Positions 21,088-49,239 of a stretch of DNA of 64,000 nt are shown in pieces. The DNA comes from an uncultured Desulfobacterales bacterium (GTDB taxonomy: Bacteria; Desulfobacterota; Desulfobacteria; Desulfobacterales; C00003060), in contig CAYSGJ010000017.1 of NCBI GenBank assembly GCA_964430705.1, positions 24,007 to 88,006 of the forward strand, written 5' to 3'. The translations under genes and the position numbers were made by a program. The notes under the pieces are model-generated. The model saw only the letters and a list, made by a program, of their open reading frames with translations, was not told the DNA's origin and did no database searches. The stretch's first letter is position 1. Each line of letters begins with the position of its first letter.

Positions 21088-22482
21088 CTATGTTTTTGCA
21101 TGTTCATGGTTTCGGTTTTTCCTGAAATTGAAATACCAATATACGCAGATGCCTGCGCCGATCGTTGCCAGACCGAACAGGGAAGCGACGGGTCGGCTTT
21201 TGAGGGAAAAAAAGACGATCCACAAATTTCCAGCCATAAAAAGAGCCGGCGTCAACGGATATCCGAGCGTCCTGTAGGGTCTTTTTGCCCCCGGTTGCGT
21301 GATTCTCAGCACCATCAACCCCGCCACGGTGGCTATGGCGCACAGGGAAAGCGTGAAGCCGATATAGATAAGCAACTTGTCAAAGGATGCGGTAAGCGCC
21401 ATCGCAATGGCCACGGCGCCCTGCAAAAAGATGGCATGCGCCGGCGTCCTGTGGAGCCTGTCGACCTTGCCGAGACGCTCAAAGAAAACCCGGTCTTTTG
21501 CCATGGCATAGTAAACCCTTGGTCCGGTCATGACCATGGCGCTCAGGACCGACAACAGCCCCACGGCGATGGCCGCGCTGAAATATCTGCTGATGTGCGG
21601 GCCGAACAAGGCTATGGCCGATTCCGCCCCGACTTCCATCACTCCGCTCATTTGCTGCACAGGAAGGGCATAAACGTAAACCACGTTGAGAGCAACGTAG
21701 AGGCCCGTCACCACGAGGGTACCGACAAAAAGCGCCAACGGAATATTGCTGCCCGGATTTTGGATCTCCCCGCCCAGGTAGGCGGCGGCATTCCATCCGC
21801 TGTAGGCAAACGCGATGAATATGAGTGAAACGGCGAACTTGTCCTGAAACACGGAGGAGACATCAAGATCTGCCGAGAAATGCGCTGTTGAGCCATGCCC
21901 CATGAAAAGTCCGCCAACAACCAGAGCGAGAATGAAGCTTATCTTAAAAAGGGTCAAACCGTTTTGCACGCCCGTTCCCAGGCGGAGGCTGTGATAGTGA
22001 ATGAGGGAAACCGCAATAATAGCCGCCACAGCCAAGAGGGTGACCGGAGACAGGGTCAGAATCCTCACGCCGAAAAAAGACATCGTGTATTCGATGGAGG
22101 CTGAGATCGGCGCCACGCGAAAACAATAGCCGGCAAAGGCGATGGCCGCTGCTGCGATAGGAGCGGAAAACCCTACGATCAAGGAAATCCAGCCGGAAAG
22201 AAAAGCGATGCCCTTTCCGAATGCCTCCCGCAAGAACACATATTCGCCGCCGGCCTTTGGGAACATGGCGCCAAGTTCGCCATAACAAAGCGCCCCGCAT
22301 AAGGCAAAGACGCCGCCTACGACCCAGGCAGCAAGCATGGTATTGGGATTGCCAAGCTCCGCGATGATAAAGCCGGAGGTGGTAAAGATGCCGGTTCCCA
22401 CCATATTGGCAATCACCAGCACTGTCGCCGAAAAGAGGCTCAGTTCTCTTTTGAGGGTGCTGTTGTTCAACGTATTTTTCAA
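21088..22482 (-). CDS. APC-superfamily amino acid/polyamine-type permease
   Basis: 464 aa, about 12 TM. The N-terminal GTGIFTTSG motif is typical of APC transporters. Its start overlaps the upstream stop. Confidence 0.85.
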   Translation of the reverse strand: MKNTLNNSTLKRELSLFSATVLVIANMVGTGIFTTSGFIIAELGNPNTMLAAWVVGGVFALCGALCYGELGAMFPKAGGEYVFLREAFGKGIAFLSGWISLIVGFSAPIAAAAIAFAGYCFRVAPISASIEYTMSFFGVRILTLSPVTLLAVAAIIAVSLIHYHSLRLGTGVQNGLTLFKISFILALVVGGLFMGHGSTAHFSADLDVSSVFQDKFAVSLIFIAFAYSGWNAAAYLGGEIQNPGSNIPLALFVGTLVVTGLYVALNVVYVYALPVQQMSGVMEVGAESAIALFGPHISRYFSAAIAVGLLSVLSAMVMTGPRVYYAMAKDRVFFERLGKVDRLHRTPAHAIFLQGAVAIAMALTASFDKLLIYIGFTLSLCAIATVAGLMVLRITQPGAKRPYRTLGYPLTPALFMAGNLWIVFFSLKSRPVASLFGLATIGAGICVYWYFNFRKNRNHEHAKT

Positions 22483-23159
22483 GGCCCTTTGTCCCCGACG
22501 GCTCCCGTGTGTTCATCAAAGATGTGCCTTCGATCCAGATCTCGCCAATAGCCAATGGCCAATGTCCGAATATGGGCGAAATAGTCAGGATTGAGGCCGC
22601 CGTGCTCCTTCAAGGCGGCCTCAATGCCGGCCTTGATTTGGGCCACGATGTGGTCTTTGATCTTCAAGGTGATTTTGCGATCGTTGTAAGAAAAAGCGGC
22701 TGACGATGACGATGTTTCCTCAGAAATGCTTACAATAGCTGCACCTGCCGGTTTGCACTCGCGATATTGCTTGGACAAGTCGGCGGCATCAGACCAATGC
22801 ACGTCTTCGGACCAGGACCGCCATGGCGGCGCCGGCTTTTCCGATTCCTTTCCCTTGGCGACCACCGTGCGTTCTTGATTGAAATACTTCAAAAGCATGG
22901 CTGCATTGCGGCAGCCAACCTCGGGCGAGGATGCTCCGTCAGAGGTCACTATCAACGGAATATCCGCTGTGCCTGAGTTTAAAAGCATAATCATGGCGCG
23001 CATGTCGTCAAGGGCCAGATCCGTGTCCATCACGACCGATATCGTGTATGTGTGTGCCCCTGCAAAACGGACGAAAGATAACAGGCATACGAGCATGCAT
23101 GCCACGAGGGCCCTCCCGAAAAGAACCGGTCCCTTTATACCCTGATCTGTGGTTTTCAT
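22479..23159 (-). CDS. Exported protein with an N-terminal nucleoside-hydrolase-like (DXDXXXDD) domain
   Basis: Start ATG 23159. Hydrophobic signal/anchor LVACMLVCLLSFVRFAGA. VVMDTDLALDDMRAMIMLLNS matches the IU-nucleoside hydrolase signature. At 226 aa it is shorter than canonical enzymes. Confidence 0.6.
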   Translation of the reverse strand: MKTTDQGIKGPVLFGRALVACMLVCLLSFVRFAGAHTYTISVVMDTDLALDDMRAMIMLLNSGTADIPLIVTSDGASSPEVGCRNAAMLLKYFNQERTVVAKGKESEKPAPPWRSWSEDVHWSDAADLSKQYRECKPAGAAIVSISEETSSSSAAFSYNDRKITLKIKDHIVAQIKAGIEAALKEHGGLNPDYFAHIRTLAIGYWRDLDRRHIFDEHTGAVGDKGP

Positions 23160-23160
23160 A

Positions 23161-24096
23161 TCATCTTGCTTTCGTCTGCAGTCGCTGCATGGCGCTTTCG
23201 TAGGGCTTGCCCTCAAGAAACCGCCCGATGAAAAGCAGCCCCATGAATTTCTCGGCGTCTTTTGAAAGTTTCTCTCCCATGTCGGCCACCGTTCCGCGTA
23301 CGATACGCTGCCGATCCGGATACCCCGCCCAGAAGACGACCGCGCACGGCATGTCGGCGGGCAACACCTCCCCAAGATCTGCAAACAACTTCTCCGGATC
23401 ACGCAAGGCCATGTAAAGAACCATCGTGGCTGGGTATTTGGCCAGGTCCTGAAGGATCTGGGCGTCTTTCAAGCTTGCATCATCTCCCGACGCTCGATCT
23501 CTCAAAAAGGAAGGGCTTGCCTGCATAACGAACCTGGTGTCGTGGGAAGGAATCGTGCTTTTTCCAAGAGCTGCCATGGCCGACGCATCGCAGCCCATGC
23601 CCGGGATGATGATCACGTCTTGCGAATCGAAGTGCTCCACGTACCAGTGACTGGGACCGAACAGGCAGGGATTTCCCGAGTCGAGCAACCCTACATCTTT
23701 GCCCTGCGCCAACAGGGCCTTGATTTGTTTGACCCGCTCGTCCCTTATTTTGAACCGCTCCACCTTGAATTCGGCCTTTTCCTCCTCGCTCAGTTCCTGG
23801 GATTTTTTTCCCTTATAATCCCAGAGCCCTTTCCACGGATCAAACAAGGCCGTTTTCGGATCAATGTATTGCTCAAAAAGCTTCGCATGCTTTTCCGATG
23901 CCACAATCACCTCCATCCGCTTCATGGTCTCGAGGGCCTGCAAGGTGGCGGTCTGGGGGCCCGCAGGCCCGGTGCCGATGACATAGAAGTGGCCGCGTCC
24001 CCACGATCCGGCCTGAGGCGTGTGAAGACATAGAATGAGGACGGTTACAACGGCGACGGTCAAACAAGCTCGAATCGGTTGATGCCTATGCTTCAT
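23161..24096 (-). CDS. Exported tetrapyrrole-methylase-fold protein, paralogue 1
   Basis: Signal/anchor, then FYVIGTGPAGP, LLDSGNPCLFGPS, IIPGMGCDASAMAALG and TMVLYMAL. This is the motif order of the corrin/porphyrin methylase superfamily, with an altered Gly loop. Confidence 0.7.
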   Translation of the reverse strand: MKHRHQPIRACLTVAVVTVLILCLHTPQAGSWGRGHFYVIGTGPAGPQTATLQALETMKRMEVIVASEKHAKLFEQYIDPKTALFDPWKGLWDYKGKKSQELSEEEKAEFKVERFKIRDERVKQIKALLAQGKDVGLLDSGNPCLFGPSHWYVEHFDSQDVIIIPGMGCDASAMAALGKSTIPSHDTRFVMQASPSFLRDRASGDDASLKDAQILQDLAKYPATMVLYMALRDPEKLFADLGEVLPADMPCAVVFWAGYPDRQRIVRGTVADMGEKLSKDAEKFMGLLFIGRFLEGKPYESAMQRLQTKAR

Positions 24097-24103
24097 AAAT
24101 ACC

Positions 24104-24865
24104 TCACTTAATCCCAAAGGTTAACGTCATACAGTAAAAAAGCTCGTCGCATTCTGCCTGGTCAGGATACGGGCGTTTGTGAGGAACCTTGATCAGCCAC
24201 TCGCCCTTTTTTAAAATCTTGATATTGGCGATGCCGTCCCGGTTGACCATGGTTGAAAAGGCAAAGGTCTCGCCTTCATCGGAAAAACCGGCATAGGTGG
24301 CGTGTATGAAATCCCGAAACAGGGGGTGTCCTTTGTAGAGAAACTTTACCGGCAGCGTGTCCCCTTCTTTGAGGCTTGCCGGATTTGCCAGCGGCACAAT
24401 TTCGATAAAATCATTTTTTTCCCGGTTCAGGCCCTGTTCCTGTCCTCCCGCGTTGATGACCGCCTTGGCCCGCATATCATAGCTGACGCAATGCAGGGCG
24501 TTGTCCAGCCCTTTTTTATTCTGCCGTTTGGATCCTTCCGTGGTCTTGGTATACACACCGGGATTGATCTCGGCATACACCAGGTAGGTTCCTTTTTGTT
24601 TGACGGCAAGCTCGTATTTTCCTACGGCACGTTGCTTTATCGCCACGACATTGCCGTTTGGATCCAAAACATTCACATGCGCCAAGCGCTCCTCTTGCAC
24701 GATCTCATCTTTCGGAAACTTGTGACCCCAACCGACTTCGATCAGAACCGTGTCGCCGACTTGGGGCGCATAGTCGCCGGCATTGATCCAAAGCATGTGC
24801 CCCCAAACGGGAAGGGCGGCTGTAACCATCATCAAAAAGCACAACACAGAGACAATCTTTTTCAT
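24104..24865 (-). CDS. DUF4198-type periplasmic protein, paralogue a
   Basis: Signal peptide, then GHMLWINAGDY. Beta-rich, 253 aa. The family recurs next to the TonB-dependent receptors in this window. Confidence 0.7.
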   Translation of the reverse strand: MKKIVSVLCFLMMVTAALPVWGHMLWINAGDYAPQVGDTVLIEVGWGHKFPKDEIVQEERLAHVNVLDPNGNVVAIKQRAVGKYELAVKQKGTYLVYAEINPGVYTKTTEGSKRQNKKGLDNALHCVSYDMRAKAVINAGGQEQGLNREKNDFIEIVPLANPASLKEGDTLPVKFLYKGHPLFRDFIHATYAGFSDEGETFAFSTMVNRDGIANIKILKKGEWLIKVPHKRPYPDQAECDELFYCMTLTFGIK

Positions 24866-24976: not shown

Positions 24977-25888
24977 TTACTGCGTCCTGTGTTTGACCAT
25001 TCCCCGTTGCGGCTGCCCTTCCAGGCACCGGCCGACGATAATCATGCCCATCCAGTTTTCCTTTTCCACCTTGATGTCGTTCAGGATGGTTCCGAGGGTT
25101 CCTCTGATAATCTTTTCCTTGTCCGGATCTCCCGCGTAATACACAACTGCCGCGGGCATGTCATCGGGATAGTACTTTCTCAGCGTAGCCATGAGGTTGT
25201 CTGCCTTTTTCAGGGCCATGTAGAGGCCGATGGTAATGGGATACTTGGAAAGATCTTTCAGGATGGCCTCGTCTTCCGGTTTTCCGAACAGAAACGTAGG
25301 CGCGGTGAGCATGAGAAATCGGGTATCATAGGCCGGGATCGACGATGTTTTTAACGCCGCCATGGAGGCCTGGAAGCACCCCAGTCCCGGGATGATCTCA
25401 AATTCGTCTTTTCGGAGGCCCTCGGCAACCCGGTGGGAAGGGCCGAAAACGCAGGGATCTCCGCTATCCAGGACGGCCACGGTCTTGCCCCGGGCCATTT
25501 GTTGTCTGATTTTGGCAACCGTCTCATCCCAGAATCGGAACCGCTCTTCCCGATATTCCTTTTTTTCCTCCGGGCCTAAAGTTTCCAGGTTTTTATATTT
25601 GAAGTCACCACCCCACGGGTTGCCCAGGTACTCTTTGCCCTCGAGATAGGAAGAGAACCTTTCGCGCACGTCATCCGAGCAAAAAATAACATCCGCTTCC
25701 TTGATGCATTGCATGGCCTTGACCGTGGCATGCTCGGGGCCGGCCGGCCCGGTCCCGATGACGTAGCATTTGCCCCGGCCTTTGTGATCCGGATCGGCCC
25801 AAACATGGGAAGCACCTGTAAATAAGAGAAAAACAACTGTCAGGATAAATAAATCCCGTAACGCCATCATGTTACACCGGGTGTGCAT
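24977..25888 (-). CDS. Exported tetrapyrrole-methylase-fold protein, paralogue 2
   Basis: ATG 25888 lies 7 nt after AAGGAG. Signal ...FTGASHVWA/DP. Motifs CYVIGTGPAGP, VLDSGDPCVFGPS, IIPGLGCFQASMAAL and GLYMAL. Confidence 0.7.
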   Translation of the reverse strand: MHTRCNMMALRDLFILTVVFLLFTGASHVWADPDHKGRGKCYVIGTGPAGPEHATVKAMQCIKEADVIFCSDDVRERFSSYLEGKEYLGNPWGGDFKYKNLETLGPEEKKEYREERFRFWDETVAKIRQQMARGKTVAVLDSGDPCVFGPSHRVAEGLRKDEFEIIPGLGCFQASMAALKTSSIPAYDTRFLMLTAPTFLFGKPEDEAILKDLSKYPITIGLYMALKKADNLMATLRKYYPDDMPAAVVYYAGDPDKEKIIRGTLGTILNDIKVEKENWMGMIIVGRCLEGQPQRGMVKHRTQ

Positions 25889-26078: not shown

Positions 26079-28142
26079 CTAGAATTTCAGCGTCGCTGTC
26101 AGGCCGGCGGTTGTTCCCGGCATGTCATACCCGTATTTGAGCTGATAATCCTGGTTGGTGACGTTGTTTACATACCCCTTCAAGACGAATTCGCAATCTT
26201 GGGGCAGTTTGAAAGTGTGCTGTGCACCCACGTCCACAACCACCACGTCTTTCATGGTGTCGTGCTGTTTGTTGTAACGTTCCCCCAGGTACTTGGCATT
26301 GAGGTTCACCACCCCGTTTTCCCAGAGCTTGTAGTCCAGACCCATGGATACCTTGTTCCGGGGCTGGCTCTGCAGGAGATAGTGGGTGTTTTCCGTGTCC
26401 ATGGGATGGTTGCTGGCGTTCCAGTCCTGATACGTGTAAGCCAGATAGCCGCTCAGATCCTGGGTGAAGCTTCTGGAAAGCTCCAGCTCAACCCCGTAGA
26501 CGAGCATATCGATATTGTACACGACCGCAGAGGCAGCGCCGCTGATGTAATTGTGCTGCTGATAGTCGCTGATGTCGGAATAATAAAAGGCGGCGCGGAA
26601 TTTCGTGTCTTCCAGAAGCTCTTTGACGCCCCCTATTTCATACGTCCACGCTGTTTCTGTCTTATACTCGGGATTTGCCGCTGCATATGCCGCTTCGGAC
26701 CCGGCCCGGGCCCATCTCCAGATATCTCAGATTCAGGGCAAACGCATTTCACGGCTGACAGCCGCATAGAGCGACAGGCTGTCATCCCAGTCGTAGTCCA
26801 GCCGCGTCTTGGGACACCACTCCCGTTCCACCCTTACTGTCGCTGTATTGGGATCTCCAAATACGCGGGAGTCGGTCGAAAATTCGTACCAGCGCGTTCC
26901 AAATGTCAGCGTCGTCGCGTCGGTGATAGACCACACATCCTGAATAAAAAGCGCGGTAATTTCATAGTAATCTTTGTTGTCGGGCGTACCCTGATTCCGG
27001 TAGTCGCCGCCGATGGACAGTGAATGATCCTTGATCAGGGTGAAATCCAAGTAATCCAGCGCAATGCCCCCGGTGTATTCTTCCTTGTAGTTGGAGCTGT
27101 CCGTTCCGTCGGCATTATGCCGGTACCGGTCCCGCTTGGACAATTGCTGGTACACCTGCCCCCGCAACTGCCCGACCGGAAGAGGCTGTTCGATGAGAAG
27201 GCTCTGGTCGTTGACCGTCCTTTCCCACTGGTTTTTCCCTCCGGCGTAGGCCGTGCCTTCGTAGTCGTGGCTGAAGGTGTCCACCTCGCCGGCACGAACA
27301 ACCGGGTACCCGGGATCGTAGTTCGAATCCGGATCATCGGGGTCGTTGATCACGGCGTAACCCGTGACCGTGTCCACATGGTCGATGCCGTAGGTGATCG
27401 TGCCGCCCGTGGGAAGGTAAAGCGAGAAACGTCCATTGATGTTGTCCGTGTTATAGTCGTTTCCGCGCAAAAAACCATCGCCTTCCCTGTGGCCCGCCGC
27501 AACCGCATAACCCAAGGTATTCAGCACGCCGCCGCTAAGGCTTGCACTGTAGTTTTGGGCGCCATAAGGACCGAAGCCCGTTTTGACGGTTCCGTTGGGA
27601 GTAAGATCATCGGTCTTTTTCCCTTTTTTGGTAATCAGGTTGACCGCTCCGCCCATGGAAAACGGGAAAAGGAGCGAATGGCTTCCGCGGACGATCTCAA
27701 TGGTCTCGATCATGTCCAAGGGCATGGTGCTCCAGTCCATCTTGAAATATCCGTGACTTCCGTGGAGTCTTAAGGGCCTGCCATCCATGAATACCTGGAA
27801 ACGCGAATCGTCCATTCCCCGGATATAGACTCCCTCGCTTTGCGACGGGGTCACGGAAGAGAAAAGCACGTTTATGCCAAGCGCGTCGCTCAGAATATCC
27901 TGTACATTTTCCGCCTTGCCGGCTTTTTGAAATTCCTCCACATTGATGACCGTCACCTGCGGCGTCACCACCATCGATTCATCCCGCAAGGGATGATCCC
28001 TTACAATGACCTTGTCGAGTCGATAGACCTTTTCGTCCTTCTTGGGTTCCGTCTTCTGGGCCCTACTGAAGCCCGGAATCGACAACACAAGAATCAGGCC
28101 CATCAATCCGACCAGGCCGCATCTTAGAATCCTCGTTGTCAT
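26079..28142 (-). pseudogene. TonB-dependent receptor 1, one continuous frame interrupted only by two TGA codons (26735-26733 and 26729-26727)
   Basis: ORFs 26733..28142 (plug plus barrel) and 26079..26522 (C-terminal barrel ending ...ATLKF) are in the same frame. The gap reads ..REMRLP-TGA-I-TGA-DIWRW.., aligning to GFRAPSLFELY of paralogue 2. Confidence 0.6.
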
Positions 28143-28423: not shown

Positions 28424-28578
28424 AAAAAAAAGCCACGAAGTCACATCATCCCTTCTAGGATGCAAGCCTTCGTGGCTGGATTTGAGAAATTCCGAATCTA
28501 AATTGGTATTACCGGCAGTTTCTACCGCCGAGTTGCAAGTATATGCTCATATTTATCAGCCAAGCCCATACCTGTCAA
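28424..28578 (-). promoter_or_regulatory. Leader module i: promoter + AGAA-loop hairpin + terminator-like compound hairpin
   Basis: TTGACA (28578-28573)-17-TAAATA (28555-28550). Hairpin CGGCGGU-AGAA-ACUGCCG (28530-28513). AUCCAGCCACGAAGGCU..inner AUCCU-AGAA-GGGAU..CUUCGUGGCU plus U8 (28477-28424). Confidence 0.6.
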
Positions 28579-42414: not shown

Positions 42415-42572
42415 AAAAAAAGCCACGAAGACATCGTATCCGTTCTCGGATGACAGCCTTCGTGGCCTTGGATTGTGCGGCGAACTCTAAACGCTATAAA
42501 AAATCGACATTTTGCAGCTTCTGCTGCAACAATTCATATCAACTCAATAGTATTTATTTCGACTGTAGTCAA
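42415..42572 (-). promoter_or_regulatory. Leader module iii
   Basis: TTGACT (42572-42567)-17-TATTGA (42549-42544). Hairpin UUGCAGC-AGAA-GCUGCAA (42529-42512). AUCCAAGGCCACGAAGGCU..AUCCG-AGAA-CGGAU..CUUCGUGGCU plus U7 (42467-42415). Confidence 0.6.
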
Positions 42573-42881
42573 TAGAAAAATTTACACTCGTATTTTTAGG
42601 CCTCGGAATTTGTCAGGAAGAAGAACCCAACTGCAACAATTGCCGCAAGGCTTGTGACAGTGTCTTTTTGTCGTGGCTCGCCAATCGGCCTGTTTTGCTC
42701 AAAACCAACCGATGATCCAGCGTAAAAAGCTTCATCCGCACCTTGGAATCGGCTTTCAATCAAGCTTTCCGTTTGTCGGTGATTGCTGTGTCGAGAGGCT
42801 GGTCGGGATTCCTCTGACTGGTGATCATGGCAAGCACCACGTGACCGCTTGCTATGTTGAACATCTTTGGATCTGACCTTG

Positions 42882-43031
42882 TTTCCCGGTCGCCCCCACC
42901 GCGGCACCGACGCGGCAGGAGCGACCTGGAGTAGAAAGGAGGTGAGAAAGTGAACCAGAAAAAACCTGGCCCGGGAAAACCACAAAAAAAGCCAGGGGTC
43001 TCAGGCGTTCTGCCTGTAAGCCTTCCCGGCT
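42882..43031. repeat. Repeat B (paralogue of 38891..39035)
   Basis: See repeat A. SD AAGGAGGTGA at 42936-42945. GTG 42950 opens a 35-codon ORF, MNQKKPGPGKPQKKPGVSGVLPVSLPGFWLCSCVS. Confidence 0.7.
42984..43031 (-). terminator. Terminator-like compound hairpin downstream of the methyltransferase gene
   Basis: Minus strand: AGCCGGGAAGGCU..CAGGC-AGAAC-GCCUG..CCCCUGGCU plus U7. Confidence 0.55.
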
Positions 43032-43154
43032 TTTGGTTGTGCTCCTGTGTCAGCTAATGTTGCGTGCATCATACGAGGCATCTTCATGATGCCTACGCTC
43101 TATGAAATCAGCAATGTCATCAAATTCCGAACAAGTGTCTTGATCGTGACGTTA

Positions 43155-43859
43155 TCAGTGCATCGCGTTCCAGCAGAAAAGGCCAACCAGGGCGGTATCG
43201 TCCATCCAGAGGTGATCGCCTCGCTTCACCAGTTTTTGCGCGATGTCATCTTTTTCCCGGATGTCGGGCCGACGGCCGTTGTTGGCCGCCCAATGTTCAA
43301 ACGCCTCGTTCACGCTATGGTAGGCGAAACCATTTCCGATCTTTTCCACCCGGACATACTGCAAGGCATAGTTGCCGCGTCGCAAAGGGATCCGTATTTC
43401 CGGGGAGAAAAGTTCCGTCACGACCACGACCCGTTTTGCTTGTGTGGCAAAAACCTTGGAAAGGGCGGGCGTGAAACCAATCCGGGTGAGATGCAAGCTG
43501 TTGCAGGCCAATATCAGGTCATAGCCTCTGAAGGCCCTGCACGGCACTTGCTCCCATGGCCGCCCGTCGATTTTTACGCTATGGGAGGAATCTTTACGCG
43601 TCTGTTCTCTGAGAAGATGCCTCATAGCCGAAGACGGTTCCAGCGCGGTGACTTCGCATCCCATGTGCGCAAGGGGCCTGGAAAGAACCCCGTTTCCAGC
43701 TCCGATATCGAGCACCTGCCACGATGGCTTCGCTAAGGTTGTTAGGGTCCTGGCGATGCGTTCGTGATAACGGCTGTGGGCCATCCATTGCTGATACCAA
43801 CGAAAATACCCTTGCCAGAAGGCCGGTGTCGTTGCTCTCTTCCAGATTTGCTTTTCCAT
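43155..43859 (-). CDS. Class I SAM-dependent methyltransferase
   Basis: VLDIGAGNGVLSRPLAHMGCEVTALEPS (motif I). Start ATG 43859 lies 13 nt after the U-tract of leader module iv. Confidence 0.8.
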   Translation of the reverse strand: MEKQIWKRATTPAFWQGYFRWYQQWMAHSRYHERIARTLTTLAKPSWQVLDIGAGNGVLSRPLAHMGCEVTALEPSSAMRHLLREQTRKDSSHSVKIDGRPWEQVPCRAFRGYDLILACNSLHLTRIGFTPALSKVFATQAKRVVVVTELFSPEIRIPLRRGNYALQYVRVEKIGNGFAYHSVNEAFEHWAANNGRRPDIREKDDIAQKLVKRGDHLWMDDTALVGLFCWNAMH

Positions 43860-43871: not shown

Positions 43872-44005
43872 AAAAAAGGCCACGAACCCCACCTTCAGGT
43901 GGATAGCCTTCGTGGCCTGGATGTTATGTCTATGGATTTTGTGTTCAGGACCCTTCAGTGGTCCGTTTAATATTCAGATATACTGAGCAAAACCTATGCC
44001 ATCAA
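43872..44005 (-). promoter_or_regulatory. Leader module iv
   Basis: TTGATG (44005-44000)-17-TATATC (43982-43977). Hairpin GGACC(A)C-UGAA-GGGUCC (43964-43948). AUCCAGGCCACGAAGGCU..CCACC-UGAA-GGUGG..UUCGUGGCC plus U6 (43917-43872). Confidence 0.5.
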
Positions 44006-44360: not shown

Positions 44361-45083
44361 CTACGTCAGCTCGAAGACGATGGTCAGCTCCAAGGGGATC
44401 TCCCCCTCAAAAAAGCGTCGCGGGGGCTTGGAAAAGGGCGCGGCGGCCTGCACGGCTCTTAAAGCGGCGGCATCGAGATCCTTGTTTCTCGAATGCCTTG
44501 TAATTTCCAACTGTCGAACAGCGCCGTCCGGCGTGATCACAAAGCGGATCGTCACCCGGCCTTCGATATTCCTCACCCTGGCCAGGTCGGGATATTTCTT
44601 GTGCCGTTCTATCTTGAGCCTCACCATCTCAAGATAGTTCTGGGCGGTTGCAAAATCGCCCCCCGCGTCGTCCACCAGTGCGCCGGGCGCCCAGTCCGCC
44701 ATCGCAAGGCCCGGGGTGTCCGGTATGTCCGGCATGGCAATGCCTTCCACCAGGCCGTCCGGAAGGTTTTTCTCAGGAGGTTCCATCTTGATCGGTCTTA
44801 GCCGGGGCACCTGCCGCTGGATGACATTGAGCTTTTTTACTTCCTGCACCTCAGGGGTCTTGGGCCTGAATCGGGGCCTGGGAATATCTCGTACGGACGG
44901 TTTGGACATATCGTGCATGGTCAGCTCTATGTAGGTCAAGACACTGGAGTTGTACAAGCCCGTAACATGCATGAAAATGAAGGCATGAATCACCAGAGAA
45001 ACGCCGATGAGGCCTCGAAAGAGCCAGTTAGGTCTATTAGACACAGATTTCGCAGATTCCACGGATTTAGGGTTACCTGACAT
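44361..45083 (-). CDS. tonB: Energy transducer TonB
   Basis: N-terminal TM (LFRGLIGVSLVIHAFIF), Pro-rich spacer (RPRFRPKTPE...PRLRPIKMEPPEKNLP), and a C-terminal TonB domain (GRVTIRFVITPDGAV...). Confidence 0.85.
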   Translation of the reverse strand: MSGNPKSVESAKSVSNRPNWLFRGLIGVSLVIHAFIFMHVTGLYNSSVLTYIELTMHDMSKPSVRDIPRPRFRPKTPEVQEVKKLNVIQRQVPRLRPIKMEPPEKNLPDGLVEGIAMPDIPDTPGLAMADWAPGALVDDAGGDFATAQNYLEMVRLKIERHKKYPDLARVRNIEGRVTIRFVITPDGAVRQLEITRHSRNKDLDAAALRAVQAAAPFSKPPRRFFEGEIPLELTIVFELT

Positions 45084-45387
45084 TGTCAAATATTTTTCGT
45101 TTGACCTGAACGGAAGGACCGAAGTTAATGAGCAAACCCACCTCTATTCCGGTTGCTTTGAGATAGTTCACCAATTGCACTTCGTGGATTTCAGCCAGAT
45201 CTTTGACCGCTTTCAATTCAAGAATCACCTTGCCTTCCACAATGGTGTCTGCTGAATAATCACCTACGATTTGACCCTCATAATACACCCTAATGGCCTT
45301 TTCGTTTTCGACTTGCAATCCGATTTTATTGAGTTCAAGGATGAGAGCATTCTGATAAACCTTCTCCAGAAATCCAAAACCCAGCAC
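45073..45387 (-). CDS. GxxExxY-family small protein without a canonical start codon
   Basis: GFGFLEKVYQNAL...KAV..L..IHEVQLVNYLKATG. The frame extends upstream (..IKHSHLTEKIIRAAFSVHNVLG) to a TAA with no ATG/GTG/TTG, next to a G8 run. Confidence 0.55.
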   Translation of the reverse strand: MLGFGFLEKVYQNALILELNKIGLQVENEKAIRVYYEGQIVGDYSADTIVEGKVILELKAVKDLAEIHEVQLVNYLKATGIEVGLLINFGPSVQVKRKIFDNVR

Positions 45388-45515
45388 GTTGTGAACTGAA
45401 AAGGCTGCCCTGATTATCTTTTCGGTAAGATGCGAATGTTTGATTGGCCCCCCCCGTTTTCTTTATGCGGATTGCATCGATTCTCAGAAATCCGCGTAAT
45501 CTGTGGAATCCGTGT

Positions 45516-45923
45516 CTAGAAGTCCTTTTCCGTGGCCAGGCACAGCCTTCCTGCGCCGGCAGCCTTGGCGATGTCCATGACCTTGACCGCCTTGTTCAAG
45601 ATGACGCTCCGGTCGGCGCGAACCACCACGAGCTCGTCCTGCCTGGATCCGATCCTTTCCTGAAGCCGGCTGAACAACCTGTCCAGCGGCACCTCGTCCG
45701 TTCCGAGAAAGGCCCGTCCATGCTCGTCCACATAGACGGTAATGACTTCTTCGGTCTGCGGGGCCGCGGCCTTGGCCTGGGGAAGCTTGACCTTGATCCC
45801 TTCGTCTACCATGAAGTTGGTGGTGAGCAAAAAATATATGAGCAGCATGAAGACAATATCGATGAGCGATGTCAGCGGCGTCTGGATTTGATATCGTTTC
45901 CTACGGTTTTTGTTTGAAAACAT
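45516..45923 (-). CDS. exbD: Biopolymer transport protein ExbD/TolR
   Basis: 135 aa. TPLIDIVFMLLIYFLLT TM segment. GAGGAGG lies before the ATG. Confidence 0.88.
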   Translation of the reverse strand: MFSNKNRRKRYQIQTPLTSLIDIVFMLLIYFLLTTNFMVDEGIKVKLPQAKAAAPQTEEVITVYVDEHGRAFLGTDEVPLDRLFSRLQERIGSRQDELVVVRADRSVILNKAVKVMDIAKAAGAGRLCLATEKDF

Positions 45924-45963
45924 CTACAACCTCCTCAAAAGAAATCTCCAGTAAGCTCGTGGC

Positions 45964-45981
45964 ACGAATATCAATATTCGT
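45964..45981. promoter_or_regulatory. 18-bp perfect palindrome in the exbB-exbD spacer
   Basis: ACGAATAT-CA-ATATTCGT, inside an unusually long (166 nt) exbB-exbD gap. Confidence 0.4.
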
Positions 45982-46089
45982 ATTTCGAATTTTTCAATGA
46001 GCATTTCAACACAACATAGCCTCAACTTTGCCCGCACTATCTCCTTCTGTTTTGCCCTTTGCCTTATGCTCTTTGCCCTAAGCTGTTTT

Positions 46090-46749
46090 CTAATGCGCAT
46101 GGCTGTGAGAGTGCTCATGGGTGTGAAGCCCGTTGTGTCCGTGGATCCGGTAGCCGATGGCCTTGACGAACACCACGGCGCCGTCTTGCAGCTGGGCTTC
46201 ATATGTGTCTACACGGGCAACCAGATAACTGTGAGCCACCATGACGGGAAGAGCCACCGCCAGCCCAAGGGCGGTCGTCAACATGGCTTCCCAGATTCCC
46301 CCTGCCAGCACGGCGGCATTGACTTTGCCGCCCATTTCCTGAATCACCATGAAGGCCTTGATCATACCCAGAACCGTACCGAGAAGGCCCAGCAGCGGGG
46401 CGATATTGCCGATGGTAGCCAAGGCCTGGAGATAGCGGGAAAGCTCCCGCGTTTCCTTTTCCGTGGCGTGCACAATGACGGTTTCCAGGGTTTCCCGGTC
46501 CTGGTCTTTTACCTCCATAGCGTGTGTCAAAACCCGTCCCATGGGTTTGTCGTCGGCGCTGGCCAGGTCATACGCCTTCTGGTCTTCGCCGTTTTTCAAG
46601 TATCGCCCCACCTTTTCCACCAATCCGTAGCCCCGTATCTTGACGCGGCTGAAACGGATAAGTCGCTCTAAAAAGATGGCCAGCGCCAACACCGAACACA
46701 ATAAAATGGGTCCCACAAGGACCCCGCCCTTTGCAAGAAAATCGAACAT
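46090..46749 (-). CDS. exbB: MotA/TolQ/ExbB proton channel with a His-rich C-terminal tail
   Basis: ATG 46749 after GGAGG. Three TM segments, with the GNIAPLLGLLGTVLGMI motif. Tail ...RIHGHNGLHTHEHSHSHAH. Confidence 0.88.
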   Translation of the reverse strand: MFDFLAKGGVLVGPILLCSVLALAIFLERLIRFSRVKIRGYGLVEKVGRYLKNGEDQKAYDLASADDKPMGRVLTHAMEVKDQDRETLETVIVHATEKETRELSRYLQALATIGNIAPLLGLLGTVLGMIKAFMVIQEMGGKVNAAVLAGGIWEAMLTTALGLAVALPVMVAHSYLVARVDTYEAQLQDGAVVFVKAIGYRIHGHNGLHTHEHSHSHAH

Positions 46750-46840
46750 GGTTAGCCTCCGGACTCTGAGAAAGTAAGCAGGTGCGAAAGTGAGAAAGCG
46801 TGAGATAAAAACAGCGTTTTCCAATTATCGCCCGCGGTGT

Positions 46841-47279: not shown

Positions 47280-49046
47280 TCACGGTTCCGTCTGCGCCAC
47301 ATCTTCAACGTCCGGTGTCCCGTCATAATTCAGGTCCCTTGACCTTTTGATCAGGGCTTCCGCCTTATCGTATTCCTCCCATAGATCGGGTTTTCCGTCC
47401 CCGTTGGTGTCCTCCTCTACGGCCACAAGACTGCCCTTTTCGTAGTAATACCATGTGTCCACCTCCCCGTCGCCGTTGTTGTCTTTTTCCGCCCGGACGG
47501 CTTCTTCGTCGTCATTGTAGAACCAGACGATGGTGAAACGGCCCGCGCCCTGGTCGTCTTCTTCGCTCTTTTCCAGCTTTCCCTGCGGGCTATAATGCTC
47601 TCTCAGGTCCGGCTTTCCGTTGCCGTTTCCGTCGATTTCTTTTAATCTCAACACGCCGTCTTTGTGGTAGTAACGGCCTTCGGGCCTTCCGTCTCCGTCC
47701 GCATCCAACTCCATGACCATGTCCCACGGGGGCCTGTTGAACCACTGGGTGATTTCAAAATGCCCGTCCCCGTCCTGATCCCGGATGAGGCGCTGTTTGA
47801 CGCCCTTTTCGTAGTACACCTTAAGATCCACCGTGCCGTCGCCGTTTTCGTCTCGTTCCGCCCGGACGAGTTCTTGATTGATAAAAAACTCCCAGGCATC
47901 GATTTTTCCATCCAGATTCGTGTCGCTTTCCACCCGCTCCTTTTCTTCCTTGGCATTGAAAAAGATCGTCACATCCGGTTTTCCATCCTTGTTGCGGTCC
48001 TGCGTTTGTTGAAACATTTTTCCTTTTTGGAACAAGGTGACGGTTTCCATGAAACCATCGCCGTCGGAATCGTAAACGACCGTTGTCGGTTCCCCGTCCC
48101 GGTAGGTCCGGATCCGGTCGATGCGGCCCGTATGCCTAGTGTCTTCCTCCATCTTTTCGGGATATCCCTTGGCGTCAAAACGGATAAACACGTCGTCCTT
48201 TCCGTCAAAATTCGTGTCTTTTTCCTGGTGCGACGGCAGTCCTTCCTTGAAATAAGTCACGATGTCAAAGCGGCCGTCTCCGTTGGAGTCCCTTTTCTGT
48301 TTGACCGGCTTGCCGTCTTCAAACAGGGTGATGATCTCGAACTTTCCGTCCTTGTCTTCGTCTTTTCTCTGCTCGACCAGATCGCCCGCCCGATACAAAC
48401 GCACGACTTCCATGAAACCATCGCCGTCCAAATCGTGGAGGCTCTTTTTCGGAAGGCCTTCATCGTCGTACAGGGTAATGCTGTCGATATTGCCGTCGCC
48501 GTCATCGTCCGTGCGCCGTTCGACGGGTTTATCGTCTTTATAGGTTTGCCAGACGTTCACCTTGCCGTCTCCGTTGGCATCCTTGGTGGACCGGACCAGC
48601 TTTCCTTCTTCAAAATAATACAGGGCGTCAAAACGGCCGTCCAAGATAGTGTCCCGTTGCATCTCCAGGGGCCGCTCTTCGGGGTCAAACAGGATGACCA
48701 GCTCCAGCCGGCCTGCGTCTTCATCTGCGCGTTCATGTCGGATCCTTTTGCCGTTTTCAAAAAAATCCCACGCGTCAATTTTCTGATCGTGGTTTCTATC
48801 GCTTTCAATTTTTGAAATTACTTCATTGGAATAGTGCTGAAACCGGTCCATGAAGCCGTCCCCATTGCTGTCTATTTCGAGCTTCACCAACTTGCCCTTT
48901 TGATCGAAATGGGCAATTTGATCGATTTGGCCGTCGTCGTTTGTGTCCCGTTCTATGGGTTTTTTCCCGGCTGAGGCCGACCATGGAGAAAGTACGAGAC
49001 AACATATCAAAAAAAATGAACAAACGCTTTTCATGACGATATACAT
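47280..49046 (-). CDS. Exported protein with 23 tandem about 24-aa repeats, each carrying a Dx[DN]xDGxx[DE] loop
   Basis: Signal ...FFLICCLVLSPWSASA. Repeats such as DSNGDGFMD, DANGDGKVN, DDDGDGNID, DTNGDGKPD. Start is 49046, 49034 or 49058. Confidence 0.8.
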   Translation of the reverse strand: MYIVMKSVCSFFLICCLVLSPWSASAGKKPIERDTNDDGQIDQIAHFDQKGKLVKLEIDSNGDGFMDRFQHYSNEVISKIESDRNHDQKIDAWDFFENGKRIRHERADEDAGRLELVILFDPEERPLEMQRDTILDGRFDALYYFEEGKLVRSTKDANGDGKVNVWQTYKDDKPVERRTDDDGDGNIDSITLYDDEGLPKKSLHDLDGDGFMEVVRLYRAGDLVEQRKDEDKDGKFEIITLFEDGKPVKQKRDSNGDGRFDIVTYFKEGLPSHQEKDTNFDGKDDVFIRFDAKGYPEKMEEDTRHTGRIDRIRTYRDGEPTTVVYDSDGDGFMETVTLFQKGKMFQQTQDRNKDGKPDVTIFFNAKEEKERVESDTNLDGKIDAWEFFINQELVRAERDENGDGTVDLKVYYEKGVKQRLIRDQDGDGHFEITQWFNRPPWDMVMELDADGDGRPEGRYYHKDGVLRLKEIDGNGNGKPDLREHYSPQGKLEKSEEDDQGAGRFTIVWFYNDDEEAVRAEKDNNGDGEVDTWYYYEKGSLVAVEEDTNGDGKPDLWEEYDKAEALIKRSRDLNYDGTPDVEDVAQTEP

Positions 49047-49063
49047 ATAACCTAACAATCTAT

Positions 49064-49239
49064 AAAAAAAGGCCAGGATGGAATGACAGACTTCCTGTCT
49101 GCAAGCCTTCCTGGCCCGTGTTTATTTTTCCGATAAAAATAAAATTAGATGAAAAAAACCTTATGCACCTTCTGGTGCAGTTTTTCAGTCTTTACAACGA
49201 ATCCATGGCATTGTACATGCAGAAGACAGAGGATGTCAA
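49064..49239 (-). promoter_or_regulatory. Leader module v
   Basis: TTGACA (49239-49234)-18-TACAAT (49215-49210). Hairpin UGCACC-AGAA-GGUGCA (49179-49164). GGCCAGGAAGGCU..GACAG-GAAGU-CUGUC..UCCUGGCC plus U7 (49116-49064). Confidence 0.55.

Follow-up and report, generated by a model that had tools for sequence, protein, structure and literature searches.

A predicted nickel-uptake regulon of a Desulfobacterales bacterium whose units share an RNA leader

Introduction

Several components that recur at the locus described here are already known from other systems. DUF4198 proteins have now been shown to bind Ni or Zn (PMC12537917, PMC12663993); IsDUF4198 binds Ni with a Kd of 18 nM, and its gene neighbours are TonB receptors and NikR_C (PMC12537917), while the structurally characterised N. 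gonorrhoeae protein Zcp is a Zn- and Zur-regulated zinc protein that also binds Co, Ni and Cu in vitro (PMC12663993). The nikK and nikL genes were proposed to encode periplasmic nickel components in delta-proteobacteria (PMC545781), Ni-transporting receptors are known (PMC11247825), and a selenoprotein TonB-dependent receptor, PUIUD, is curated in NCBIfam. Thus receptor and DUF4198 neighbourhoods, NikK/NikL and the PUIUD receptor have precedents. In contrast, we found no description of an exported methylase-fold module, or of the leader RNA reported below, in Rfam 15 or in the papers searched, so that the claim of the preliminary description that this combination of parts is not a described system is half right.

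Results

The window we analysed is a 64,000-nucleotide stretch of an uncultured Desulfobacterales bacterium (GCA_964430705.1, contig CAYSGJ010000017.1), within which about 27 kb is occupied by outer-membrane metal-import genes, most likely for nickel. The preliminary description listed three TonB-dependent receptors, three DUF4198 proteins, three exported tetrapyrrole-methylase-fold proteins, an anchored Ig-like protein, an exported nucleoside-hydrolase-like protein, an APC permease, a SAM methyltransferase, a motor led by a repeat protein and a shared leader, and we confirm that every one of these items is in the sequence, although several require correction. The features are as follows, with other stretches of DNA that were compared with the window designated by L numbers.

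28425-28533 (minus), leader copy 1, heading unit 1; promoter-proximal GAA-loop hairpin P1, linker and terminator GCCACGAAGGC...TCGTGGC-U8; 62.1 bits, E 5.6e-7 with our covariance model (R1); the fold shows the composite hairpin followed by a U-tract
28143-28424 (minus), a second structured 5'-UTR element (part B) containing AAGGAGGUGA, a GGGGAAGGCNGC...GCNGCCUUCCCC hairpin and GAAGCCCCUCGG..GAGGGAUGCUUCG
26079-28142 (minus), TonB-dependent receptor 1, a selenoprotein of the PUIUD type
24977-25888 (minus), exported class III (tetrapyrrole) methylase-fold protein 2; PF00590, E 3e-38; signal peptide; invariant GPAG where methylases have GPGD; placed with CobM/CbiF by AlphaFold and Foldseek
24104-24865 (minus), DUF4198 periplasmic metal-binding protein 1; PF10670, E 2e-36
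23161-24117 (minus), exported methylase-fold protein 1; PF00590, E 5e-30
22479-23159 (minus), remnant of an exported IU-nucleoside-hydrolase-FmdE fusion
21088-22482 (minus), APC-superfamily permease, last gene of unit 1; AA_permease_2, E 2e-51
37046-37154 (minus), leader copy 2, heading unit 2; 63.6 bits, E 3.4e-7
34887-36968 (minus), TonB-dependent receptor 2; TIGR01785, TIGR01783 and Plug/barrel family hits
34021-34743 (minus), DUF4198 protein 2; PF10670, E 4e-17
33512-34021 (minus), NikL-like protein with a signal peptide, an Ig-like domain and a C-terminal membrane anchor
32595-33554 (minus), exported methylase-fold protein 3; PF00590, E 1e-34
42415-42531 (minus), leader copy 3, heading unit 3; 59.1 bits; followed by a part B element at 42123-42414
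41340-42122 (minus), DUF4198 protein 3; PF10670, E 3e-37
39254-41302 (minus), TonB-dependent receptor 3; TonB-receptor family hits
49065-49182 (minus), leader copy 4, heading the motor operon; 54.4 bits; promoter TTGACA-18-TACAAT at 49239-49210, scoring 11 of 12 in a promoter scan
47280-49058 (minus), exported Asp-rich repeat protein of 592 aa with a signal peptide, first gene of the motor operon
44361-46824 (minus), exbB (46090-46824, with a His-rich C-terminal tail), exbD (45516-45923), an inserted PDDEXK_3 gene (45073-45387) between exbD and tonB, and tonB (44361-45089), from Pfam matches
43872-43967 (minus), leader copy 7; 44.3 bits, E 2.4e-4; its U-tract ends 12 nt before the methyltransferase ATG
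43155-43859 (minus), cytoplasmic class I SAM methyltransferase; Methyltransf_12/25/23/11
38988-39095 (minus), leader copy 5, heading a 74-aa TusA-fold ORF (38249-38473; PF01206, E 2e-8) that has Tyr in place of the active-site Cys; 62.1 bits
42984-43096 (minus), leader copy 6, a duplicate of copy 5 (repeat families D5 and D7) whose downstream TusA-like gene has been lost, only its 3' end surviving at 42847-42877; 52 bits
37727-37996 (plus), His-rich 89-aa ORF, convergent with the units and without a leader, homologues of which lie near leaders in L123 and L063
18793-19791 (plus), CooC-like ATPase with a His-rich tail, outside the range of 22479-49239 given in the preliminary description

The leader was said to head five transcription units, but the covariance model finds seven copies, all on the minus strand between 28.4 and 49.2 kb, co-oriented with and immediately upstream of the units, and none elsewhere in the 64 kb; all seven transcription units between 21 and 49 kb start with it. 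Copy 7 was not used to build the model. Each copy has a promoter, a hairpin with a GAA loop, an A/U-rich linker and an intrinsic terminator whose 5' strand is GCCNNGAAGGC, and there is no room for another promoter between terminator and start codon, the gap being 12 nt at the methyltransferase. No Rfam 15 family matches the leader. All 6 P1 pairs show compensatory changes, with a covariation score of 0.367 against 0.121 in shuffles (0 of 500 shuffles reach it) and at most 0.117 for slid partners, and the result repeats on loci collected through the methylase-fold protein rather than through the leader (0.364 against 0.161). P1 with an xGAA loop is present in 90 of 125 leaders, against about 18 in shuffled sequence. 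Part B, which also has no Rfam match, is conserved in L003, L004, L016, L020, L040 and L097, and RNAalifold predicts 20 pairs, 6 of them with compensatory changes.

The leader recurs in more than 119 stretches, mainly from Desulfobacterota, and the same leader and gene set recur in many related genomes. The first homologous gene downstream of 44 pattern hits belongs to a family also found in the window (receptor, DUF4198, NikL-like, repeat protein-ExbBD-TonB or methyltransferase), and methylase-fold and APC genes follow further along in several of these operons. The rest include CbiM+PDGLE, SBP_bac_5, Peripla_BP_2/FecCD, ABC_tran, FmdE, DUF3842 and porins. Elsewhere the leader thus precedes Nik(MN)-type ECF, NikA-like ABC, NikL, LarE and DUF3842-CooT genes as well as CbiM+PDGLE fusions and NikA-like binding proteins, which points to nickel rather than corrinoid or zinc. 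LarE scores 212 bits (cut-off 150) and NikL 177 bits (cut-off 100), and a leader copy lies directly upstream of DUF3842-CooT in L004. The order repeat protein-ExbB-ExbD-(TonB) follows the leader in L011 and L014, and homologues of the repeat protein are the first gene after the leader in L021, L074, L083 and L118. Homologues of the SAM methyltransferase are the first gene after the leader in L107, L041, L033 and L088, and four further methyltransferases appear in the census.

Receptor 1 is one reading frame with two in-frame TGA codons, at 26733-26735 and 26727-26729, and matches NCBIfam NF049944 at 1279 bits (cut-off 850). The same two TGA codons are conserved in L003 and L004, a conserved 8-bp hairpin lies 15-21 nt downstream, and TGA is an ordinary stop in five neighbouring genes. 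Each of the three DUF4198 proteins has a signal peptide followed directly by His. DUF4198 protein 1 aligns full length to Zcp (PDB 9MHI-9MHO; E 1e-20), with the N-terminal His kept but the Zcp His triad not. The anchored Ig-like protein matches the NikL family NF058648 at 53 bits, below the cut-off of 100, and has weak DUF4198 and CarboxypepD_reg matches. The match of the supposed nucleoside hydrolase to IU_nuc_hydro is real, but the gene is an internally deleted remnant lacking about 275 central residues, matching residues 6-140 and 415-494 of a 502-aa protein from L134 that carries IU_nuc_hydro plus FmdE. The repeat protein has 18 strict D-x-[DN]-x-[DN]-G motifs at about 24-aa spacing, rather than the 23 repeats originally counted.

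The exported methylase-fold proteins form an uncharacterised family. Their fold is confirmed by AlphaFold modelling (pLDDT 85), for which the best Foldseek hits are CobM/CbiF with TM 0.81-0.84. Of 80 metagenome loci holding the methylase-fold protein, about 73 carry receptor, DUF4198, NikL-like, APC or IU-hydrolase-like genes on the same strand, in two recurring orders, both of which occur in the window.

No ABC or ECF importer had been seen in the window, and the view that no importer is visible needs correction. No ABC signature motif occurs anywhere in the window, but the APC permease is conserved after the methylase-fold/DUF4198 genes in L067, L124 and many metagenome loci, and is the obvious inner-membrane candidate. 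No delta-proteobacterial NikR box lies at the unit promoters, and no cobalamin riboswitch occurs in the window or in eight methylase-fold loci.

Discussion

The interpretation first offered, that of one regulon for outer-membrane import of Ni/Co or of a metallated tetrapyrrole, is partly supported by our findings. That the units form one regulon is strongly supported; Ni/Co import is supported, with nickel favoured; import of a corrinoid or other metallated tetrapyrrole is neither supported nor excluded. We consider it more likely than not that this is a nickel (possibly Ni/Co) acquisition regulon of a sulfate-reducer-type bacterium. While the genes, the leader copies and their recurrence elsewhere are read from sequence, the mode of control, the cargo and its route, the sensor acting on the leader and the role of the methylase-fold proteins are inferred, and no experiment bears on cargo, sensor or methylase-fold role; there are no expression or transport data.

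In this view, each of the seven units is transcribed from a σ70-type promoter into the same ~105-nt leader, which ends in a strong intrinsic terminator, and downstream genes would be expressed only by readthrough, with transcripts stopping in the leader when the metal is sufficient and reading through when it is scarce. The stable 5' hairpin P1 has a loop of the form C-(N)NGAA-G, and the same motif recurs as GCC-ACGAA-GGC inside the 5' strand of the terminator, where it could form a 3-bp mini-hairpin (P2) that excludes the terminator. The most economical model is that a two-site factor binds P1 and P2 and prevents termination. It is possible that this factor is a protein, although we hold this only tentatively, and direct ligand or metal binding seems to us less likely still; the sensor itself is not identified. 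We note that P2 has only 3 base pairs and that its sequence conservation was partly imposed by our search pattern and model; no antiterminator helix is conserved, and no candidate RNA-binding regulator was found. As regards the cargo, families and conserved gene order suggest that the three receptors, one carrying a Sec-x-Sec motif in the barrel, move it across the outer membrane, powered by a dedicated ExbB-ExbD-TonB motor with the Asp-rich repeat protein. In the periplasm it would meet the DUF4198 proteins (N-terminal-His metal binders), the NikL-like anchored protein and the exported methylase-fold proteins, and the APC permease would take it across the inner membrane. The methylase-fold proteins have lost the GPGD motif and sit where SAM is not expected, and so are probably ligand binders rather than enzymes.

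The assignment to nickel rests on annotations of co-regulated genes in other genomes, some of which are equally typical of cobalt/B12 regulons. CbiM-type hits are named cobalt transporters and score below their cut-offs, ChlI/CobN-like chelatase genes follow the leader in L025 and L075, and Cob_adeno_trans and a BtuFCD-like transporter sit beside the module in L003. The methylase-fold proteins, moreover, are closest to cobalt-precorrin-4 methylase and have no invariant His or Cys that would suit a Ni site. We cannot rule out, although we think it unlikely, that the regulon imports a metallated tetrapyrrole (a corrinoid or precursor, or a nickel tetrapyrrole such as F430-type or sedimentary Ni-porphyrins), with the methylase-fold proteins as the periplasmic tetrapyrrole binders and the leader sensing that cofactor or its metal. 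These proteins are specifically closest to tetrapyrrole methylases (CobM/CbiF, CysG, NirE, CbiL), not to RsmI or diphthine synthase; they are encoded directly after the receptor gene in many loci and within the receptor operon in most others; and their conserved residues are acidic, basic or aromatic, which suits an organic ligand. There is also a precedent for an exported tetrapyrrole-pathway enzyme in a sulfate reducer, the periplasmic Dv-CbiK(P) (mentioned in PMC4063343). Apart from the lack of a cobalamin riboswitch, however, the conserved inner-membrane partner belongs to the APC family, which carries small substrates, the module's metal binders (DUF4198, NikL-like) and the wider regulon (LarE, CooT, Nik(MN), NikA-like) handle free or lightly chelated Ni, and no tetrapyrrole-degrading or dechelating enzyme is evident.

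Less likely again is a zinc, or broadly divalent-metal, scavenging regulon for sulfidic habitats, where all soft metals are scarce. Zcp is a zinc protein, His-rich and Asp-rich repeat proteins are not metal-specific, and we infer that Sec-x-Sec in a receptor barrel would bind any soft metal. Nevertheless, the Zcp His triad is not conserved here, and no Zur-type markers (ZnuABC, COG0523, ZinT) appear among the downstream families recovered with the leader, whereas several Ni-specific genes (LarE, NikL, DUF3842-CooT) do.

Finally, it is very unlikely that the repeated module is not a metal-responsive switch but a family of small RNAs or merely a lineage-typical terminator through which the units are not co-regulated, even though its architecture of promoter, hairpin, A/U-rich stretch and terminator also describes Hfq-type small RNAs, part of its conservation was imposed by our search pattern, and a few hits are in unrelated taxa such as Bacteroidia and Thermoplasmata, since all seven copies are co-oriented with and abut the downstream genes with no intervening promoter, the downstream gene families are strongly non-random across genomes, and, by our own count, the leader appears upstream of the receptor (occasionally of the methylase-fold gene) in about 24 of about 29 loci that were collected without reference to it and have enough upstream sequence.

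Organization of the locus

ORF listing and family searches confirm that the parts listed in the preliminary description are present, although some details need correction. Between 21.1 and 49.2 kb almost everything is on the minus strand and falls into seven units:

Unit 1 (28142 to 21088): receptor 1, methylase-fold protein 2, DUF4198-1, methylase-fold protein 1, an IU-nucleoside-hydrolase-like ORF and an APC permease.
Unit 2 (36968 to 32595): receptor 2, DUF4198-2, a NikL-like anchored Ig-fold protein and methylase-fold protein 3.
Unit 3 (42122 to 39254): DUF4198-3 and receptor 3.
Unit 4 (49058 to 44361): an exported Asp-rich repeat protein, ExbB (with a His-rich tail), ExbD, an inserted PDDEXK_3 gene and TonB.
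Unit 5: a 74-aa TusA-fold ORF lacking the catalytic Cys.
Unit 6: a decayed duplicate of unit 5.
Unit 7: a cytoplasmic class I methyltransferase.

A VapBC pair and an ATPase (28.8-32.3 kb) interrupt the series and look unrelated, and the window contains no ABC signature motif. The closest relatives of the proteins come from Desulfobacterales, such as Desulfosarcina, and from Desulfobacca. The repeat protein at the head of the motor operon has 18 strict DxDxDG-type motifs rather than the 23 repeats first counted, and the leader occurs seven times rather than five.

Receptor 1 (26079-28142, minus strand) is not split or broken. It is one frame with two TGA codons one codon apart (RLP-TGA-I-TGA-DIW), at 26733-26735 and 26727-26729, which sit at the position of the conserved RAPSLxELY barrel motif. 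We considered a frameshift or pseudogene as the explanation and rejected it, since both stops are TGA, in frame and conserved in three genomes (the window and two loci from other genomes, L003 and L004), and the family is curated as a selenoprotein. TGA is a normal stop in five neighbouring genes, and a conserved 8-bp hairpin that starts 15-21 nt downstream looks like a shared SECIS for both codons. The protein scores 1279 bits against NCBIfam NF049944, "TonB-dependent receptor, PUIUD motif-type", whose cut-off is 850, and it therefore belongs to a curated family of two-selenocysteine receptors; insertion of selenocysteine was not assayed, and the Sec machinery genes are not in the window. A sister type (FCYXU) was predicted by deep-Sep in Desulfosarcina sp. 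BuS5 in 2025 (PMC12013277; listed in PMC13188914).

The ORF at 22479-23159 (minus strand), first taken for an exported nucleoside-hydrolase-like protein, is a remnant. It is an in-frame deletion derivative that matches residues 6-140 and 415-494 of a 502-aa exported IU_nuc_hydro-FmdE fusion, which is intact in a close relative (locus L134, 4282-5790). That fusion recurs in the module in other loci (L128, L132, L134, L137, L140, L142, L204 and L206), and FmdE-domain proteins are also frequent first genes behind the leader.

The leader

Read on the minus strand, each copy of the leader has a TTGACA-type promoter, a hairpin (P1) whose stem sequence differs between copies but whose loop ends in GAA and is usually closed by C-G, 25-65 nt of A/U-rich linker, and a long G+C-rich hairpin followed by six to nine U. 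The 5' strand of that last hairpin reads GCCNNGAAGGC, with NN covarying with the 3' strand (ACG/CGT, AGG/CCT, and ATG/CAT in L003), and its interior often carries another GAA-loop hairpin. A simple terminator scan misses these composite terminators because their loops exceed 8 nt, and folding and a covariance model were used instead. The covariance model, built from 45 copies, finds exactly seven copies in the window, all co-oriented with and adjacent to the units, one of which was not in the training set. At the methyltransferase the U-tract ends 12 nt before the ATG, so the gene can only be transcribed by read-through. A conserved structured RNA and an intrinsic terminator lie between the promoter and the start codon and recur before functionally related genes, as expected of a transcription-attenuation leader, although condition-dependent read-through was not measured here.

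Searches with Rfam 15 at gathering level, on the window and on eight module loci, gave no hits, and permissive searches on the leaders gave only noise at E up to 5-10; in particular, there was no match to the cobalamin, NiCo, Mn, Mg, Moco or mini-ykkC families. A 2024 review of metal-sensing RNAs lists none for nickel uptake (PMC11672702), and a full-text literature search for the leader core sequence found nothing relevant. We also sought the NikR operator of delta-proteobacteria (GTGTTAC-N13/14-GTAACAC; PMC545781). With up to 3 mismatches there are 2 and 5 matches for the N13 and N14 spacings, respectively, none of them at a unit promoter; the N13 count is at chance level, and the N14 count is above expectation but its matches lie away from the promoters. 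Between the -10 box and P1, leader 2 has a perfect 16-bp palindrome, ATAAGCATATGCTTAT (37130-37175, minus strand), and leader 1 (28540-28560, minus strand) and L004 have similar GAGCA(T/A)ATACTT sequences. This may be an additional DNA operator, but it is not conserved in all copies.

A second conserved structured RNA of about 180 nt lies between the leader terminator and the start codon of some receptor and DUF4198 operons. It is found in the window at 28143-28424 and 42123-42414 (both minus strand), in L003 (7469-7747), in L004 (7556-7867), and in the loci L016, L020, L040 and L097. It begins with a perfect anti-16S sequence, AAGGAGGUGA, followed by a GGGGAAGGC...GCCUUCCCC hairpin, a GAAGCCCCUCGG..GAGGGAUGCUUCG element and a conserved GUCAAC, and it has no Rfam match. 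We considered whether it encodes a leader peptide, but the Shine-Dalgarno-like sequence is not followed by a conserved start or ORF, and we rejected it as coding.

Distribution of the leader and the genes downstream

An exact-pattern scan of one genome per species found more than 119 stretches, a number that is a minimum. Most are in Desulfobacterota, with some in Nitrospirota/Thermodesulfovibrio and NC10 and a few in Clostridia. In Clostridia (L023 and L121, from Oscillospiraceae and relatives; L010, L043 and L102) the leader has two upstream GAA-loop hairpins instead of one and precedes LarE, a methyltransferase or an ECF S-component-like protein, so the motif is not confined to bacteria with an outer membrane. 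Our scan forced the GCCACGAAGGC core and the covariance model inherits that bias, so that conservation of this element is overstated, whereas the P1 covariation and the gene census are not affected; R-scape was not run on an alignment seeded without this constraint, and the model was not searched over complete genomes. On 69 model-aligned copies all six P1 pairs show compensatory changes, and the covariation score is 0.367, against 0.121 in shuffles (0 of 500 reach it) and at most 0.117 for slid partners. The same holds on 26 distinct copies from loci collected through a protein rather than the RNA (0.364 against 0.161).

Structural features of the leaders, observed and in shuffled controls
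P1 hairpin with xGAA loop upstream: observed in 90 of 125; about 18 in the shuffled control
P1 closing pair is C-G: observed in 65 of those 90; shuffled control not measured
GAA-loop hairpin inside the terminator: observed in 43 of 125; 2.6 in the shuffled control

For 44 hits the first homologous gene downstream belongs to a family also found in the window: receptors, DUF4198, NikL-like, repeat protein-ExbB-ExbD-TonB or methyltransferase. Methylase-fold and APC genes follow further along in several of these operons. The remainder include CbiM fused to a PDGLE domain (the Nik(MN) arrangement), NikA-like SBP_bac_5 proteins, ABC ATPases and Peripla_BP_2/FecCD, NikL (177 bits in locus L117, cut-off 100), LarE (212 bits, cut-off 150), DUF3842, FmdE proteins and further methyltransferases, ChlI/CobN-type chelatase subunits, and outer-membrane porins. 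In L004 a copy sits directly upstream of a DUF3842-CooT operon. This is a metal-acquisition regulon, and its most specific members are nickel genes: NikL, LarE for the nickel-pincer cofactor, and CooT for CODH maturation. The idea put forward in the preliminary description, that of a single regulon for outer-membrane import of Ni/Co or of a metallated tetrapyrrole, is supported in part.

The periplasmic proteins

DUF4198 is no longer of unknown function. IsDUF4198 binds Ni with a Kd of 18 nM through its N-terminal His, and its gene neighbours include TonB receptors and NikR_C (PMC12537917), while gonococcal Zcp is a Zur-regulated zinc buffer that also binds Ni and Co in vitro (PMC12663993). 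The three copies here score 126.4, 63.3 and 129.0 bits against PF10670 (gathering cut-off 34) and have a signal peptide followed by an N-terminal His, a feature kept in 79% of the family (PMC12537917); the mature N-termini read HMLW, HHLW and HDYW, and H23 aligns with H27 of Zcp. They do not keep the His triad that is the zinc site of Zcp, a DUF4198 cluster 1 protein. At the positions that differ between wild-type and mutant Zcp chains (AHTHGG and VGHES), the window protein has GDYAPQ and AGGQE, although which Zcp residues are the ligands is our inference from those mutant chains. nikK and nikL were proposed in 2004 as periplasmic nickel components in delta-proteobacteria (PMC545781). The anchored protein at 33512-34021 scores 53.1 bits against the NikL family (NF058648), below the equivalog cut-off of 100, and is NikL-like rather than a called member.

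The exported methylase-fold proteins are the new element. They carry the class III tetrapyrrole methyltransferase domain (PF00590, E 5e-30 to 3e-38), and structurally they are closest to CobM/CbiF, CysG and NirE, with Foldseek hits to CobM/CbiF at E 7e-19 and TM 0.83 (range 0.81-0.84). The GDP and PG motifs are kept. However, all 34 aligned members have an N-terminal hydrophobic signal sequence, which argues against a cytoplasmic location with access to SAM, although cleavage and location are inferred from sequence only. They share an invariant GPAG where CbiF has GPGD, and so lack the canonical G-x-G-P-G-D SAM loop; they have a family-specific insert of about 45 residues that models as a long helix (residues 106-132 of the model), and they have no invariant His or Cys. 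They score far below every NCBIfam equivalog cut-off, the best hit being TIGR01465 at 95 bits against a cut-off of 260 for CobM/CbiF. Among cultured bacteria, Desulfobacca acetoxidans carries the leader-receptor-methylase-fold arrangement (L001), and Desulfosarcina widdelii encodes a methylase-fold homologue (P0030), for which a search for encoding contigs returned no record.

The preliminary description had proposed in advance that its reading be checked by a census of the neighbourhoods in which exported methylase-fold proteins, TonB-dependent receptors and DUF4198 occur together, and chance co-occurrence would have counted against it. In the eight loci examined first, the methylase-fold gene lies in a receptor operon; in seven it follows a receptor gene directly, and in L115 it follows receptor, DUF4198 and NikL-like genes. 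In 80 metagenome loci found with the family alignment, about 73 by our count carry receptor, DUF4198, NikL-like, APC or IU-hydrolase-like genes on the same strand. Two orders recur, and both are present in the window: receptor, methylase-fold, DUF4198, (methylase-fold), (IU-hydrolase-FmdE), APC, (NikL-like); and receptor, DUF4198, NikL-like, methylase-fold, (APC). The leader lies upstream of the receptor, or occasionally of the methylase-fold gene, in about 24 of about 29 of these loci with enough upstream sequence, again by our count. We infer that the methylase-fold proteins are probably binders, not enzymes, and that their ligand is organic or a metal chelate. The conserved APC permease is the likely inner-membrane step, which would be an unusual route for nickel.

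How the leader might act

The terminators are strong, with 9-11 G+C-rich pairs and a long U-tract, so the default state should be termination. The conserved GCC-ACGAA-GGC element has the same form as the apex of P1 (in some genomes P1 is literally GCCACGAAGGC or GGCACGAAGCC) and lies in the 5' strand of the terminator, and a 3-bp P2 hairpin and the terminator are therefore mutually exclusive. Inspection by eye across copies found no conserved antiterminator helix between the linker and the terminator's 5' strand. The simplest model is a factor with two equivalent sites that binds P1 and P2 and blocks terminator formation when the metal is scarce, which is the logic of ANTAR regulators, although the loop consensus differs. 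A direct ligand-bridged hairpin pair, in the manner of guanidine-II, is the alternative. We favour the protein model only tentatively, and regard the direct model as possible but less likely still; neither is shown. Everything concerning the ligand, the direction of regulation and transport is inferred from sequence, conserved context and annotations.

We sought a regulator among the linked genes. The TusA-like ORF sits behind its own leader, but a tblastn search found no homologue in any of the other leader loci, and we rejected it as a general factor. A TM1266-like (NikR C-domain-like) gene in L003 has no leader upstream and is not recurrent, and was not considered further. Leader presence was not profiled phylogenetically against protein families to find a co-occurring RNA-binding regulator.

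Alternative explanations

Corrinoid or nickel-tetrapyrrole cargo is not excluded. The fold relationship of the exported methylase-fold proteins, the Cob_adeno_trans and BtuFCD-like transporter genes beside the module in L003, and the chelatase genes behind the leader would fit such a cargo. On the other hand, there is no B12 riboswitch in the window or in the eight module loci, and the rest of the regulon is nickel-ion machinery. A zinc or general soft-metal role is less likely, in view of the genes found behind the leader and of the features of the periplasmic proteins. That the module consists of unrelated small RNAs or generic terminators is contradicted by position, orientation and the gene census.

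A more speculative possibility, which we consider unlikely but which would be of much interest if true, is that the leader is a new class of metal-responsive RNA switch, in which two or three hairpins with identical GAA loops would sense Ni(II)/Co(II), or a Ni complex, directly and would shut off a whole uptake regulon by termination across Desulfobacterota, Nitrospirota and some Clostridia. Within that regulon, a tetrapyrrole-methylase fold would have been recruited as a periplasmic cargo binder, for example for nickel tetrapyrroles or another organic Ni chelate, and would hand cargo from a selenocysteine-lined receptor to an APC-type permease, which would be a new route for nickel entry.

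Relation to described systems

In the NikR-controlled TonB-dependent nickel uptake of Helicobacter (FrpB4/FecA3 with ExbB-ExbD-TonB), and with other Ni receptors listed in PMC11247825, outer-membrane receptors and a dedicated TonB motor are likewise placed under one metal-responsive control, for a metal usually thought to need no receptor. Control here, however, is an RNA leader with a terminator rather than NikR boxes, and the periplasmic and inner-membrane parts are DUF4198, NikL-like and methylase-fold proteins and an APC permease rather than NixA or an ABC transporter. With the Nik(K/L)MQO ECF nickel transporters of delta-proteobacteria (PMC545781) and the DUF4198 proteins IsDUF4198 (PMC12537917) and Zcp (PMC12663993), the locus shares a DUF4198 protein next to a NikL-like anchored protein, the N-terminal His after the signal peptide and, in published neighbourhoods, TonB receptors; it differs in that there is no NikM/Q/O in the window, the pair is attached to receptor operons and to an APC permease, and the Zcp His triad is absent. 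Receptor 1 does not differ from the PUIUD type, of which it is a member, but its regulon context and leader were not described in the sources we consulted, and a literature search for the PUIUD motif found nothing relevant.

ANTAR-type antitermination (EutV, NasR and AmiR targets) uses two small hairpins, the second overlapping a terminator. The leader likewise has two copies of one hairpin-loop motif, the second embedded in the 5' strand of an intrinsic terminator, so that stabilizing it would prevent termination; but the loops are (N)NGAA closed by C-G rather than hexaloops with A at position 1 and G at position 4, the second hairpin has only 3 bp, and no ANTAR protein was identified. The guanidine-II (mini-ykkC) riboswitch also has two small hairpins with identical conserved loops and a variable linker, but the loops here are not ACGR. 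The Mg2+ M-box, described as an "off" switch for an uptake transporter (PMC11672702), is a metal-sensing RNA that shuts off an uptake gene by termination; the RNA here, of about 105 nt, is far smaller than known metal-sensing aptamers. The exported chelatase CbiK(P) of Desulfovibrio vulgaris is a precedent for a tetrapyrrole-pathway fold exported to the periplasm, alongside which the methylase-fold genes stand out in sitting in the receptor operon, often directly after the receptor gene.

TonB-dependent nickel uptake as a concept, DUF4198 metal binding and its receptor neighbourhoods, NikK/NikL, and the PUIUD selenoprotein receptor family are thus already known or curated. In Rfam 15 and in full-text searches, including one for exported tetrapyrrole methylases with TonB, we did not find described the leader RNA, the exported methylase-fold family and its module with the IU-hydrolase-FmdE fusion and APC permease, the Asp-rich repeat protein heading the motor operon, or the placement of the selenoprotein receptor in this regulon. 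The leader is a candidate new cis-regulatory RNA class. Nickel feeds CODH/acetyl-CoA synthase and [NiFe] hydrogenases, the core enzymes of sulfate reducers and their syntrophic partners, and in sulfidic sediments free nickel is vanishingly scarce; how these bacteria get nickel across two membranes, and how they regulate that, is largely inferred from NikR and Nik/Cbi systems. This locus, with more than 100 related loci, defines a conserved import module (receptor, exported methylase-fold protein, DUF4198, NikL-like protein, IU-hydrolase-FmdE fusion and APC permease), a regulon context for the recently curated two-selenocysteine receptor, and a compact, widespread leader RNA that would be the first RNA-level "off" control of transition-metal uptake genes other than the Mg2+ and B12 cases. 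The leader can be used as a marker to read out the nickel regulon in uncultured genomes, and it makes the question of what senses nickel in these lineages directly testable.

Additional features of the locus

Leader copies 5 and 6, with about 100 nt of structured sequence after them, are 86% identical duplicates (38249-39095 and 42596-43096, both minus strand). Copy 5 precedes the TusA-fold ORF, which has Tyr in place of the catalytic Cys, and after copy 6 only the last ~30 nt of that gene remain (42847-42877). The PDDEXK_3 (PD-(D/E)XK nuclease superfamily) gene inserted between exbD and tonB (45073-45387, minus strand) is absent from the same operon in the loci L011 and L014. Three His-rich stretches occur, none of which has its own leader: the C-terminal tail of ExbB (HGHNGLHTHEHSHSHAH; 46090-46140, minus strand), a free-standing 89-aa His/Glu-rich ORF (37727-37996, plus strand) with homologues near leaders in L123 and L063, and the roughly 70-residue His-rich tail of a CooC-like ATPase (18793-19791, plus strand). 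Lastly, direct repeats of 85% and 97% identity (41 and 37 nt), at 29268-29335 and 30832-30931, flank a DUF4143 fragment and the VapB(RHH)-VapC(PIN) pair, suggesting a small inserted or duplicated cassette between units 1 and 2.
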